The translations under genes were made by a program, and so were the position numbers. From a virus (Duplodnaviria > Heunggongvirae > Uroviricota > Caudoviricetes), in the IMG/VR virus record IMGVR_UViG_2671181111_000008: a DNA stretch of 5,053 nt. The stretch is one strand, 5' to 3'. The notes below the pieces were generated by a model. The model saw only the letters and a program-made list of their open reading frames with translations. It did not search any database and was not told where the DNA came from. Below, piece by piece: positions 62 to 4,078 of this stretch (the stretch's first letter is position 1; every line of letters starts with the position of its first letter).

Positions 62-82
62 TTACCGTAATGATGGCGACAT
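62..82 (-). pseudogene. Probable remnant of an SAR-endolysin (R21-like) start: ATG overlapping the holin stop, then MSPSLR and TAA
   Basis: Minus strand reads GAA-TAA-TG: ATG at 82..80 overlaps the S stop (84..82) in a TAATG arrangement, as in lambdoid S-R junctions. It translates M-S-P-S-L-R and then stops at TAA (64..62). From memory, phage 21 endolysin begins MPPSLRK. Downstream sequence does not continue an endolysin-like frame. Confidence 0.35.
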
Positions 83-297
83 TATTCACCTCTCGCAGCC
101 TTACGCTTGTCTTCTCTGATTTTGAAGTACAGATTTGTCAGATAAGTCAGGAAGCCCAGAACCAGACTCCCCAGTACACCAATCGCAGCCCACTGTGACG
201 GACTGACCTGATCAAGCCACTGTAAAAACCAGTAGCCAGCACTGCCTGCGGAGGTGCCGTAGGCAATGCCCGTTGAAATTTTGTCCATGGATTTCAT
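82..297 (-). CDS. S: Class II holin / pinholin, S21-like (71 aa)
   Basis: 71-codon ORF with ATG at 297..295 and GGAGG Shine-Dalgarno (309..305) 7 nt upstream. N-terminus MKSMDK gives the Met1/Met4 dual-start motif. Two hydrophobic segments and a charged C-tail ([13 protein letters not shown]). The sequence matches my recollection of the phage 21 pinholin. Position downstream of Q and tRNAs fits a lambdoid late operon. Confidence 0.85.
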
Positions 298-589: not shown

Positions 590-656
<67 letters not shown>

Positions 657-795: not shown

Positions 796-817
796 ACCTA
801 CTGAGCCAAGTCGGCAC

Positions 818-894
818 TGGACCGCCACCGGGGACTCGAACCTCGCACACTCAACTTAAAGGGTTGACGCTCTTTCCTGATGAGCTAGTGGCGG
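818..894 (-). tRNA. tRNA-like gene with atypical anticodon loop CCUUUAA (C33; anticodon positions read UUU); isotype uncertain
   Basis: Reverse complement folds as a cloverleaf: perfect 7-bp acceptor stem (CCGCCAC/GTGGCGG, C1-G72), D-stem GCTC/GAGC with 9-nt loop containing GG, anticodon stem TCAAC/GTTGA, 5-nt variable loop, T-arm CGAGG-TTCGAGT-CCCCG with one A-C mismatch, discriminator U, encoded CCA at 820..818. Position 33 is C rather than the near-universal U. Confidence 0.6.
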
Positions 895-895
895 T

Positions 896-971
896 TGGTG
901 GCCCTTGCTGGATTTGAACCAGCGACCTGGCGATTATGAGTCGCTCGCTCTCACCACTGAGCTAAAGGGCC
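896..971 (-). tRNA. ileZ: tRNA with CAU anticodon, tRNA-Ile2 (lysidine-type, ileZ-like) rather than tRNA-Met
   Basis: 76-nt cloverleaf: acceptor GGCCCTT/AAGGGCC, D-arm GCTC-AGTGGTGA-GAGC, anticodon loop CUCAUAA (U33, anticodon CAU), T-arm GCTGG-TTCAAAT-CCAGC, discriminator A, encoded CCA. It closely resembles my recollection of E. coli tRNA-Ile2 (ileX), and lambdoid Q-to-S regions typically carry ileZ. Confidence 0.8.
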
Positions 972-980
972 GAGCGCAGG

Positions 981-1009
981 ATAATAACGTTACGAAATCA
1001 ATGTTGCAA
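981..1009 (-). promoter_or_regulatory. Candidate sigma70 promoter for the tRNA cluster (TTGCAA -17- TATTAT)
   Basis: On the minus strand, -35 TTGCAA (1009..1004), 17-nt spacer, -10 TATTAT (986..981), then a GC-rich discriminator cctgcgctc before the tRNA 5' end at 971. The predicted start lies only about 4-6 nt upstream of the mature tRNA. Confidence 0.4.
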
Positions 1010-1069: not shown

Positions 1070-1100
1070 GTGGCACAAAAAACCCGCTTGTGGGCGGGTT
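1070..1100 (-). terminator. Rho-independent terminator (candidate tR-prime), bidirectional in appearance
   Basis: Stem aacccgc (1081-1087) / gcgggtt (1094-1100) with 6-nt loop. On the minus strand it is followed by UUUUUUGUG; on the plus strand by ttgtttgctttt. It lies 70-100 nt downstream of the Q-like stop. Confidence 0.6.
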
Positions 1101-1152
1101 TTGTTTGCTTTTGCCATCACGTACAAAATCGGCAAAATATCAGATTTGCATG

Positions 1153-1181
1153 AATATATGCCTTTCAATCTACTTTTGCAA
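1153..1181 (-). promoter_or_regulatory. Candidate late promoter (pR-prime-like), TTGCAA -17- TATATT, overlapping the Q-like stop codon
   Basis: On the minus strand, -35 TTGCAA (1181..1176), 17-nt spacer containing the TAG stop (1172..1170), -10 TATATT (1158..1153). The predicted start near 1146 would give a short transcript ending at the terminator at 1070-1100, the geometry expected of a Q-modified late promoter. Confidence 0.45.
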
Positions 1182-1880
1182 CACTTTGCTTTGAAAATGC
1201 CGTCTTTTTTTTGAACGTGTTCTCATTACAAACAATAAAGCCTCACTATCCAGTCGGTGAAAAATGTGTTTCATTACAACCCAGTGACCAGTAAATGTTT
1301 TGGACCAGTTTTTGGTTGTTACTCCCGCCAGTAATGCCAGCTCCTGATATTCATAACCTTCCCCACCAACCTGGTATTCATAACCTTCCCCACCAAAAAG
1401 TTCTGCTTTTACTGCCTGCGCCGCCAGCCAGATTAATTTTTTCAGGCGTTCCTGCGTTTTCCCTGCAATTTTTCTGGTACCGGATTGAGCATTAAATTCA
1501 TTCCACGCCCACTGTGTTATCGCGATCTGATATTCCCAACAAATACTCCCGCTGTAACACCACAACAACCAGGCTTTATGATGTTCTTCAAGAGACAGAA
1601 CAGCCCGCCGCCACGATGATGTCGAAAACTCAACCGGACTGACCAGAGGAATTGACGTCCCCTTCGCCAGCGATTGCTTTCCCGGGATTGGTGGATTATC
1701 CCGCGTTATCATTTTTCCAGTCACTTCATCGCGGTACCGGATTTTTTTACGCCTGTAACGCCCTGTATCGAACATGGCATTCTCTTGCCAGGCTTCAAGC
1801 TGACCTTTTGTTGCCCCACTCAAATCAGCGGTGGCGATAATGAGCTGCTCACGCACAAACTGTAAATACTGGTTATTCAT
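1170..1880 (-). CDS. Putative late-gene antiterminator (Q-like, about 236 aa), assigned mainly by synteny
   Basis: Long ORF immediately downstream of rusA and upstream of the candidate late promoter, terminator, tRNAs and holin, which is the canonical Q position. The ORF track starts at a GTG (1886); the ATG at 1880..1878 overlaps the rusA TGA stop as ATGA and is the more likely start. I do not recognise a specific Q-family motif, so the function is inferred. Confidence 0.55.
   Translation of the reverse strand: MNNQYLQFVREQLIIATADLSGATKGQLEAWQENAMFDTGRYRRKKIRYRDEVTGKMITRDNPPIPGKQSLAKGTSIPLVSPVEFSTSSWRRAVLSLEEHHKAWLLWCYSGSICWEYQIAITQWAWNEFNAQSGTRKIAGKTQERLKKLIWLAAQAVKAELFGGEGYEYQVGGEGYEYQELALLAGVTTKNWSKTFTGHWVVMKHIFHRLDSEALLFVMRTRSKKRRHFQSKVLQK
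1343..1396. repeat. Tandem 27-bp direct duplication (26/27 identical) inside the Q-like CDS, encoding GGEGYEYQ twice
   Basis: Copy 1 at 1343-1369 (cctgatattcataaccttccccaccaa) and copy 2 at 1370-1396 (cctggtattcataaccttccccaccaa). In frame, giving GGEGYEYQV-GGEGYEYQE in the protein. Confidence 0.9.
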
Positions 1881-2242
1881 GCGCACCCCAGTTCTGTGAT
1901 TTTTATCCCCAGCCGCCCACCAGGAACGAGCTGACCGCGCACAATATTGATTTCATCAAACTGCTCGTCGTCTATAAGTAGTCCAGCATGCGTCAGCGCA
2001 TCCAGCGGTGCCTTCAGGATATTGTCCAGGTCACGACGGCGCTTATCCGGTGGCTCTGCAATAATCTTTATCGCCAGCCTTCCGGACAGGTTTAATTTCA
2101 GTCGCTGCTGGCGAACAATTAGCGCCACATCACGGCGATAACGCTCACCGGCTTTTGATACAAAATATGTGCTGCCACGACGTCGCCAGTAGGTGTTCAC
2201 CGTTGGCGGGTAAGGCAAAACAAATTCTATGCGTTCGGTCAT
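1877..2242 (-). CDS. rusA: Crossover junction endodeoxyribonuclease RusA (Holliday junction resolvase)
   Basis: 121-aa ORF with clear similarity to my recollection of E. coli RusA: PDKRRRDLDN (vs RusA PDRRRRDLDN), LIDDEQ acidic pair, C-terminal GGRLGIKITELG (vs GGRLELTITEMG). ATG at 2242..2240 directly follows the upstream TAA (TAAATG). Confidence 0.9.
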   Translation of the reverse strand: MTERIEFVLPYPPTVNTYWRRRGSTYFVSKAGERYRRDVALIVRQQRLKLNLSGRLAIKIIAEPPDKRRRDLDNILKAPLDALTHAGLLIDDEQFDEINIVRGQLVPGGRLGIKITELGCA

Positions 2243-3748: not shown

Positions 3749-3904
3749 TTACTCCTCAGGTTCGTAAGCTGTGAAGACAGCGACCTCCGTCTGGCCGGTT
3801 CGGATTCGTACCTCGCAGAGGTCTTTCCTCGTTACCAGTGCCGTCACTATGACGGTTAAACAGATGACGATCAGGGCGATTAACATCGCCTTTTGCTGCT
3901 TCAT
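3749..3904 (-). CDS. hok: Hok/Gef-family type I toxin (51 aa), HokD/RelF-like
   Basis: Translation MKQQKAMLIALIVICLTVIVTALVTRKDLCEVRIRTGQTEVAVFTAYEPEE matches my recollection of E. coli HokD/RelF. Single N-terminal TM segment and conserved Cys. ATG at 3904..3902 preceded by AAGGAG about 9 nt upstream. The 70-aa track ORF is an in-frame upstream extension. Confidence 0.9.
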   Translation of the reverse strand: MKQQKAMLIALIVICLTVIVTALVTRKDLCEVRIRTGQTEVAVFTAYEPEE

Positions 3905-4078
3905 AGCCTGCTTCTCCTTGCCTTTCGGCACGTAAGAGGCTAACCTACATGTGTTCAGCATGGATTGAGCCTCAGATTAATGTTAAGCGTCTTGCAGGAC
4001 GCGTAATGTTAACTGGGGCTTTTCTCTATCTGCCTTTTGGTGTTCATGCCTGAGACAGATAGCCTCAAGCACCCGCAG
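3905..4078 (-). promoter_or_regulatory. hok mRNA 5' leader (tac-like 5' end, 5' stem-loop, upstream translation-initiation region)
   Basis: Minus-strand sequence gcttgaggctatctg...cagatag...agcctcttac...gcaaggagaag...ATG parallels the plasmid R1 hok leader as I recall it. The 5' segment (about 4078..4063) is complementary, with one bulge, to the 3' UTR segment (about 3700..3685), the fold-back arrangement characteristic of hok mRNAs. Confidence 0.5.
3975..4075 (+). ncRNA. Candidate Sok-like antisense RNA region (ends not determined)
   Basis: By analogy with hok/sok, the antitoxin RNA is transcribed antisense to the hok leader, starting near the upstream initiation region and running toward the hok mRNA 5' end. 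The plus strand here carries weak -10 candidates (TAATGT at 3978-3983 and 4004-4009) and the complement of the hok 5' stem-loop. I could not fix a clean promoter or terminator. Confidence 0.3.

Follow-up and report, generated by a model that had tools for sequence, protein, structure and literature searches.

The stretch of DNA analyzed here (hereafter, the window) comprises 5,053 nucleotides (nt) of a Caudoviricetes virus record, IMGVR_UViG_2671181111_000008 of IMG/VR, and carries on its minus strand, at 818–894, a transfer RNA (tRNA) gene with the lysine anticodon UUU and a C instead of the canonical U at position 33. Read on the minus strand, this gene has the sequence CCGCCACUAGCUCAUCAGGAAAGAGCGUCAACCCUUUAAGUUGAGUGUGCGAGGUUCGAGUCCCCGGUGGCGGUCCA. 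ARAGORN, run on the window, called it tRNA-Lys with the anticodon ttt, and Rfam model RF00005 matched it over 894..821 with a standard cloverleaf (44.4 bits, E = 2.8e-07; gathering score, 29 bits), so that it was rejected neither by ARAGORN, a check proposed in the initial annotation, nor by covariance-model scoring. The window thus contains a genuine prophage-borne tRNA gene and not a chance match, because it has counterparts in 798 of 5426 complete E. coli genomes (approximately 15%), 279 of which match at 100% identity; the intact allele is labeled tRNA-Lys in RefSeq. Single-sequence minimum free energy folding returned no cloverleaf for this gene, and likewise none for the canonical argN, making the method uninformative here.

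The anticodon stem (UCAAC/GUUGA) closes a 7-nt loop, CCUUUAA, and the initial annotation read this loop correctly; position 33 is a C (base 861), and the uridine on which the U-turn of elongator tRNAs depends is absent. No other register of the anticodon stem provides a U33, and a shift by one step would create a C-U mismatch and a 6-nt loop. Other tertiary nucleotides are all in place, including U8, A14, G18G19, the T loop UUCGAGU with A58, and the 3′ CCA. The window allele does not have the profile of a pseudo-tRNA (broken stems or invariant nucleotides and no conservation), its stems being whole except for an A51·C63 mismatch in the T stem. The same mismatch, a C1-G72 pair, the discriminator U73, and a score of 44.4 bits, as compared to 79.2 bits for the host lysT gene, nevertheless mean that the earlier description of the cloverleaf as otherwise excellent was too generous. 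As expected of a Lys isoacceptor, the gene encodes U34-U35-U36 followed by A37; the A73 expected of such an isoacceptor is replaced by U73 in the window allele and by G73 in one minor allele. The initial annotation had regarded the isotype as not assignable with confidence, a view that is overcautious for the anticodon, read as Lys by every tool and by RefSeq, but fair for aminoacylation, given the Arg-type body and U73.

Relationship to argN and the family without U33

The gene matches K-12 lysT at no more than 47 of 79 aligned positions, which does not fit descent from a bacterial tRNA-Lys. While its anticodon loop is the same as that of the host lysT family (CUUUUAA) except at position 33, differences are found in each of the acceptor stem, discriminator, D loop, anticodon stem, and T stem. 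A comparison with argN, suggested in the initial annotation, identified a true homologue; argN of phage 2851 is 84% identical to the window gene and occupies the same slot after tRNA-Ile2, and identity to argN genes ranges from 81 to 84%. The argN gene (tRNA-Arg UCG; found in Stx and other lambdoid phages, such as 933W, VT2-Sakai, and phage 2851, in the order ileZ-argN-argO) and the Lys gene have a common scaffold, consisting of the acceptor stem CCGCCAY with C1-G72, U73, A20, and the D and T arms, and both lie downstream of Q with a dedicated tRNA promoter upstream. They differ in the anticodon loop, which is CUUCGAA (U33, UCG) in argN but CCUUUAA in the window, and in the adjoining stem (CAG/CUG versus CAA/UUG), with a corresponding change from Arg to Lys; the C35 of an Arg anticodon is U35 in the window gene, although A20 is retained. 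Between the Lys gene and four argN alleles there are 12–15 differences, 8–9 of which fall within the 22 nt of the anticodon arm and variable loop (Fisher p ~0.003). Arm changes leading from argN to the Lys gene include U33C, C35U, and G36U, as well as a compensatory replacement of G30-C40 by A30-U40 and a replacement of U27·G43 by U27-A43. Together, these comparisons indicate that the Lys gene is a paralogue of argN rather than a captured host tRNA gene. Its low Rfam score is a property of the scaffold and not of C33, since the argN of phage 2851, which has a canonical U33, scores 43.0 bits (54.8 bits for argN of 933W). A G3:U70 acceptor pair, the pair that defines alanine identity, is present in two scaffold alleles, argN of phage 2851 (locus L002, 2504–2577) and locus L106 (601–676), with Arg or Lys anticodons.

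A second branch with the same scaffold, represented by at least five alleles, was found in seven contigs of IMG/VR and six of the JGI metagenomes; its loop is CAUUUAA (A33), its anticodon stem AUAAC/GUUGU, and one additional base follows position 26. Genes of this branch are called tRNA-Lys(ttt) by ARAGORN, score 36.3 bits in Rfam with no mispaired stem position, show 83% identity to the E. coli C33 form, and, for most alleles, have A73. They belong to clusters ordered Ile2-Gly-Lys, in which Lys is sometimes found approximately 360 nt downstream of Gly, and which are located directly downstream of a Q antiterminator gene of another Pfam family (PF06530); nucleotide similarity between these phages and known phages is confined to the tRNA genes. 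Scans of IMG/VR and JGI metagenomes for the scaffold with UUU, permitting A, G, or T at position 33, recovered A33 only; a single match with U33 was rejected as an unrelated tRNA-Lys inside a large tRNA array. In E. coli-type phage contigs, every recovered UUU copy has C33. U33 does occur on the same scaffold with other anticodons, namely, UCG (argN) and UAU (a Hafnia plasmid).

When 19 members of the family were aligned, the cloverleaf pairing held in 98% of cells, a value reached in 0 of 500 shuffles. Both partners have changed at three of the five pairs of the anticodon stem; at 27-43, for example, the C33 branch has U-A, the A33 branch A-U, and argN either C-G or U-G. The recovered sequences thus point to a conserved phage tRNA-Lys(UUU) family with position 33 occupied by C in prophages of E. 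coli and Shigella, by A in more distant lambdoid phages, and by U in none. Because the four stems, UUU, C32, A37, A38, and the non-U33 nucleotide have been kept across this divergence, which would be unexpected of a pseudogene, the non-U33 design appears to be selected, and the gene probably encodes a selected tRNA-like RNA with a Lys anticodon. Of the two possibilities raised in the initial annotation, a specialized tRNA or a decaying pseudo-tRNA, the former is accordingly better supported, with two lineages and covarying stems, and decay is true of certain derived alleles only (see below).

To our knowledge, few nucleotides in biology are as conserved as U33, and exceptions are known only from eukaryotes. 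Natural tRNAs that are functional without U33 include the C33 initiator tRNA-Met of multicellular eukaryotes, the C33 yeast tRNA-Leu(GAG), and the G33 Candida tRNA-Ser(CAG), all of which, unlike the phage genes, are eukaryotic and chromosomal (PMC8887486, PMC13492127, PMC5041475). Our literature search found no mention of the sequence itself or of a phage C33 tRNA, and likewise none of a bacterial or phage C33/A33 elongator family; the tRNA-Lys label in RefSeq was already in place, while C33 and the wider C33/A33 family are new to the searched literature.

Among bacterial and archaeal assemblies represented by one genome per species, the scaffold pattern was found only in E. coli (ECMA0423) and Shigella flexneri (SFBU1023), with the same Lys and Ile2 genes. 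Isolated temperate phages with the Lys gene include PhiR47_1 (PhiR47.1), a plaque-forming relative of lambda, as well as vB_EcoM-606R7, vB_EcoS-689R5, and Evi. Two derived alleles are common, one with a 1-nt D-stem deletion (dU12; found in PPompW prophages of Shiga toxin-producing E. coli, with argO as the next gene) and one with a C4U/U8C/C11U haplotype; both the dU12 and the U8C allele have the profile of a pseudo-tRNA, with no RefSeq tRNA call and no Rfam detection. The 140 copies in IMG/VR include 79 of the window allele, 26 of the U8C haplotype, and 15 with the D-stem deletion; C33 and UUU are present in all 140, and C32 is altered in rare copies. In an evenly spaced sample of the 798 E. 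coli carriers, about half have a callable Lys allele. Diversity (pi) in E. coli prophage loci was 0.023 for the Lys gene, 0.21 for the promoter, and ~0.4 for the flanks, a contrast that supports constraint, although the sample was fetched by patterns inside the Lys gene, which biases Lys diversity downward. The identical intact allele was also found behind several upstream regions that differ at 20–40% of positions.

Several other relatives of the scaffold were observed. A frequent allele in the second slot of the operon (loci L158, L159, and L160; about 25 of 101 IMG/VR loci anchored on Ile2) keeps the acceptor and D arms but has a 7-bp hairpin with a 3-nt loop in place of the anticodon arm, and in most copies the T loop is destroyed as well (GGCGGGU); between Ile2 and argO, a remnant with the shape of a tRNA has thus persisted. 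In Yersinia phages YeP1-3, the scaffold lies downstream of Q and has the loop CAUUGCC (A33, C37, C38; YeP2: locus L114, 301–378), apparently derived from the A33 form of the Lys gene; these copies are annotated as tRNA-OTHER in YeP1 and YeP3 and are overlapped by a hypothetical coding sequence in YeP2. A solo scaffold copy with a 6-nt loop, CCCGAG, occurs in 145 Salmonella plasmid records (e.g., locus L292, 4001–4077, of Infantis pN55391); it is intergenic, is located near adiA on large conjugative plasmids, and received no anticodon assignment from ARAGORN. The plasmid gene tables are empty at this site, but these tables leave out RNA genes. Locus L283 (4579–4656) contains a scaffold member with the loop CCACAAG (C33, ACA), called tRNA-Cys by ARAGORN and located between Ile2 and Gly, which adds a further non-U33 loop to this clade. 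Three IMG/VR loci (L162, L164, and L172) contain scaffold relatives of 80–81 nt with an unusual 7-bp anticodon stem and the loop GUGACAG (Val GAC); ARAGORN called these C33 tRNA-His(gtg), but refolding shows U33, so they do not represent further C33 cases.

The tRNA operon and its prophage context

The Lys gene is the second gene of a minus-strand tRNA operon with the order Ile2(CAU)-Lys-Thr(UGU)-Gly(UCC), located between the Q antiterminator gene and the holin gene of a lambdoid prophage (Table 1), which bears out the initial annotation of a phage tRNA cluster beside an Ile2-type gene. The same arrangement is fully readable in E. coli FDAARGOS_943, where RefSeq annotates tRNA-Ile, -Lys, -Thr, and -Gly between Q and a class II holin. 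The single nt separating the CCA of Ile2 from the 5′ end of Lys had been noted before and is indeed one base (895); it had also been called unusually tight, but comparably tight spacing is found in K-12, where valT and lysW are separated by 2 nt and valZ and lysY by 3 nt. Both hexamers of the putative promoter upstream of Ile2 are retained in an alignment of 94 haplotypes although the upstream regions have otherwise diverged, and the VT2-Sakai annotation places a terminator and a tRNA promoter at equivalent relative positions for ileZ-argN-argO.

Table 1. Features of the window in and around the tRNA operon.
Feature	Position	Strand	Basis and remarks
tRNA-Lys(UUU) gene with C33	818..894	-	77 nt, CCA encoded; ARAGORN, Rfam, RefSeq label of identical gene
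Anticodon loop CCUUUAA	856..862	-	C32 = 862, C33 = 861, UUU = 860..858, A37 = 857, A38 = 856; sequence and cmscan alignment
tRNA-Ile2 (anticodon CAU), first gene of operon	896..971	-	ARAGORN; Rfam 72.5 bits (971..899); RefSeq: tRNA-Ile
Spacer, one base, Ile2 CCA to Lys 5′ end	895	-	A here, G in some alleles
tRNA-Thr(UGU), first 20 nt	796..815	-	thrU copy with A9G; remainder under N run 657-795
tRNA-Gly(UCC), visible part	590..656	-	Identical to K-12 glyT where readable; first 8 nt masked; Rfam partial 655..601
Sigma-70 promoter-like TTGCAA-17 nt-TATTAT	981..1009	-	Directly upstream of Ile2; sequence scan
G+C-rich hairpin with T runs on both strands	1079..1102	unassigned	Terminator-type; tR′ position downstream of Q
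Q antiterminator gene (PF06323)	1170..1886	-	Pfam, E = 4.2e-88
Class II (P21-type) holin gene, start of lysis cassette	82..297	-	Downstream of tRNA operon; Pfam PF04971; L001 annotation

A run of N covers 657–795, leaving 153 nt from the 3′ end of Lys (818) to the inferred 5′ end of Gly (664). In related loci this interval is 80–82 nt in 102 of 102 cases and corresponds to tRNA-Thr alone; relative to these loci, the hidden stretch thus has an excess of about 72 nt, and it could contain a fifth tRNA-sized element or have had its length altered by masking. The visible start of tRNA-Thr is GCCGACUUGG, with A9G relative to K-12 thrU, and the closest full relative (locus L001, Thr at 3946–4022) has one G missing from the 3′ acceptor strand; the window-type Thr copy may thus be damaged, in contrast to the exact thrU copy of PhiR47_1.

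Farther upstream of the operon, Pfam identified RusA, DUF968, and Hok genes. A hok/sok toxin-antitoxin module is present on the minus strand at 3749–4074, including a sok RNA (3899–4074, 118.9 bits) and an open reading frame of the Hok family (3749–3961). The small RNA families isrK and isrJ gave weak, sub-threshold Rfam matches on the minus strand at 1077–1150, where the leader and terminator follow Q directly; these matches probably correspond to the short pR′-tR′ transcript typical of lambdoid phages.

Anticodon nucleases and a proposed role as replacement tRNA

The identity of lysyl-tRNA synthetase (LysRS) substrates depends mainly on the anticodon nucleotides U34–U36, while arginyl-tRNA synthetase (ArgRS) recognizes C35 together with A20. 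Lysylation of the window tRNA is thus plausible despite U73, and arginylation would have been lost even though A20 is kept, since ArgRS requires C35. We infer that the tRNA would be lysylated through its anticodon and would decode AAA and AAG.

Host tRNA-Lys(UUU) is a target of unusually many defense nucleases, and the window gene encodes a phage tRNA with the same anticodon. PrrC cuts host tRNA-Lys(UUU) 3′ of U33, and RloC removes the wobble base (PMC2610378). AriB, the nuclease of PARIS, cuts between positions 40 and 41 within U36-A-A-U-C/A (the slash marks the cut); a single U39A change is enough to abolish cleavage, to which U16-U17 of the D loop also contribute (PMC12409363; cf. PMC11464382). 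The Schlafen nuclease RorSlfn5 likewise cleaves tRNA-Lys(UUU) (PMC13056530), which is also a target of Cas13a and of P2-Old; the latter acts on tRNAs with paired CNG motifs at 28–30 and 40–42 and excludes lambdoid phages (PMC12445682). Infection can be rescued by a phage tRNA-Lys from PARIS (PMC11464382) and from PrrC170 (PMC11555353), and by the tRNA-Thr of phage 21 from P2-Old (PMC12445682). A survey of anticodon-loop evasion detected no change at the PrrC junction of coliphage tRNA-Lys (CU-UUUAA) and turned to RNA repair as an explanation instead (PMC10264068).

At the mapped cut and recognition sites, the window tRNA differs from host tRNA-Lys by C33 instead of U33, by GUU instead of UCA at 39–41, and by CA instead of UU at 16–17; its sequence at 28–30/40–42 (CAA/UUG) lacks the paired CNG motif, whereas argN has CNG motifs. 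The tRNA-Lys(UUU) of T5, which neutralizes PARIS, is similarly a UUU isoacceptor encoded by a phage, and it departs from host tRNA-Lys around the AriB site (A39 and C41 in T5; G39, U40, and U41 in the window), and the tRNA-Lys of the T5-like phage SP15, which counters PrrC170, is also a UUU isoacceptor. Unlike the window gene, however, the T5 gene has a Lys-like body (G1-C72, A73) with U33 and belongs to a virulent phage with ~23 tRNAs, and its resistance is experimental, whereas that of the window tRNA is predicted from sequence. The tRNA-Thr(UGU) of phage 21 (tRNA-Thr21), which suppresses P2-Old toxicity, offers a lambdoid parallel, as it carries the anticodon of a host tRNA destroyed by a prophage-borne nuclease on an anticodon stem altered at the CNG motif; it represents another isoacceptor, however, and the Thr gene in relatives of the window is identical to host thrU, the altered arm being found only in Lys.

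These observations suggest a mechanism in which a Lys anticodon (UUU, with C32, A37, and A38 as in the host) was mounted on the argN chassis. The Lys gene would be co-transcribed with Ile2, Thr, and Gly from a sigma-70 promoter of their own that lies just past Q and tR′, and Q-antiterminated read-through would probably transcribe the operon too; RNase P and 3′ trimming would then release the mature tRNA. Charged by LysRS through its anticodon and reading AAA and AAG, this tRNA would replace host tRNA-Lys(UUU) attacked by anticodon-arm nucleases, so that phage translation could continue, with resistance arising from the differences at every mapped cut or recognition site, including C33 at the PrrC/RloC junction. 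We give roughly even chances to this full counter-defense mechanism, i.e., to a selected divergent tRNA-Lys that replaces the nuclease-attacked host tRNA. A narrower and more tentative proposal, which we hold to be somewhat doubtful, is that these genes form a dedicated lambdoid class in which the change of U33 to C or A disables PrrC and RloC, nucleases of the HEPN type, at the 33/34 junction, with the tRNA acting as an uncleavable decoder or a competitive decoy.

A number of observations weigh against such a role. Charging is uncertain, given U73 and the Arg-type body; A73 is what Tamura et al. are said to have described in 1992 as a secondary LysRS identity element. C33 removes the hydrogen-bond donor of the U-turn. 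In vitro, C33 prevents E. coli TsaBCDE from forming N6-threonylcarbamoyladenosine at position 37 (t6A37; PMC8887486), which is thus probably absent from the window tRNA, and contacts made by U33 stabilize the anticodon and are most important for AU-rich codons (PMC5041475); because loss of t6A37 is predicted and AU-rich codons need such stabilization, the window tRNA may decode poorly. With regard to nucleases, Gamma-toxin cuts C33 and U33 substrates equally well, and the T5 tRNA-Lys evades AriB while keeping U33 (loop CUUUUAA), so that a non-U33 nucleotide is not needed for evasion. The cluster also does not consist uniformly of resistant variants, since Thr and Gly in the operon have the sequences of the host genes; for the same reason (100% identity to thrU and glyT), the idea that the whole operon forms an anti-PARIS/anti-Old set, with Lys and Thr as the prime targets of AriB, was rejected for Thr and Gly. 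To these points may be added the structural flaws described above (A51·C63, C1-G72, and U73) with a score that is low for a bacterial tRNA, and the signs of decay considered next.

Alternative explanations

The explanation that competes best with a replacement tRNA is that the gene is a barely functional or non-functional relic, that is, a loop-mutated copy of argN that persists 1 nt from a selected Ile2 gene in a cassette recombining as a unit. Consistent with a relic, the model score is low, the T stem is mismatched, the near-universal U33 is gone, and t6A37 is predicted to be lost; moreover, about half of the sampled E. coli carriers have further-damaged alleles, and the Lys gene is three times more diverse than the adjoining Ile2 gene in the sample selected on the Lys sequence. 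In the Ile2-anchored sample, the second slot of related prophages is often degenerate, with forms that include argN alleles whose T loop is broken and a form derived from Lys without an anticodon arm. Because Lys lies 1 nt from Ile2, hitch-hiking is possible for the E. coli loci, and this tight linkage could account for conservation across different flanks. Hitch-hiking fails, however, for the A33 branch, in which Lys follows Gly, sometimes at a distance of ~360 nt, in otherwise dissimilar phages. Compensatory changes in the anticodon stem also speak against a relic, as does the clustering of the differences from argN in the anticodon arm rather than an even spread, and the intact allele is the commonest and is carried by viable phages. 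We therefore regard a relic as unlikely, albeit a serious contender.

A tRNA-shaped decoy, which would bind an anticodon nuclease or a modifying or sensing factor without being cut or used and would titrate this factor during lytic growth, appears improbable. It would fit the position of C33 or A33 on the 5′ side of the bond cut by PrrC and RloC, the predicted poor decoding, and the variable discriminator (E. coli alleles have U or G, A33-branch alleles A or U), which is compatible with weak selection on aminoacylation; competition by over-expressed viral tRNAs has been raised as a possibility (PMC12409363). Scaffold relatives that would not decode have also been kept, as in the 6-nt loop of the Salmonella plasmids and the CAUUGCC loop of the Yersinia phages, but these may simply be decaying. 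On the other hand, a stoichiometric tRNA decoy has no shown precedent against a catalytic nuclease, and the gene encodes CCA and has a perfectly conserved acceptor stem, as would be expected of a charged tRNA.

It is very unlikely that the gene is an ordinary tRNA-Lys supplying AAA and AAG decoding for late genes, with C33 as a tolerated neutral quirk. Its partners Ile2, Thr(UGU), and Gly(UCC) do match codons that are over-used in PhiR47_1 (AUA, ACA, and GGA, 1.6–1.8-fold up relative to K-12), and yeast tRNA-Leu(GAG) can function as an elongator with C33, which has barely any effect there (PMC13492127). Codon supply nevertheless fails to explain the Lys gene, because AAA use in the same phage is about equal to that of K-12 and at least five identical tRNA-Lys(UUU) genes of the lysT type are already available in the host. 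In addition, PhiR47_1 carries exact copies of thrU and glyT (100% identity) but none of lysT, and a neutral quirk would not be expected to remain non-U in two lineages. Finally, a recoding tRNA, in which a U-turn at U34 would present UUA and allow UAA stops to be read or frameshifting to occur, is scarcely credible, as its sole support is the UUA found one position downstream of the anticodon in CCUUUAA, while the loop is of the usual 7-nt size, UUU stays in the canonical register in the A33 branch (CAUUUAA), neighboring genes give no hint of a need for recoding, and we know of no mechanism that shifts the anticodon inside a 7-nt loop.

If the narrower proposal, in which the change of U33 disables PrrC and RloC, is borne out, these genes would be the first natural case of a position 33 changed to escape immunity. 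They would also be the first family of bacterial-type elongator tRNAs to function in the absence of the U-turn uridine, probably lacking t6A37 as well. A family that avoids U33 would show that bacterial ribosomes and LysRS can use such a tRNA, or that phages exploit it. It would also supply the missing case of the evasion hypothesis, as the survey found no coliphage tRNA-Lys mutated at the PrrC junction. The replacement idea is directly testable, PhiR47.1 being an available plaque-forming relative of lambda with the gene, and it could explain how temperate phages without RNA ligases cope with the many defenses that target tRNA-Lys(UUU).

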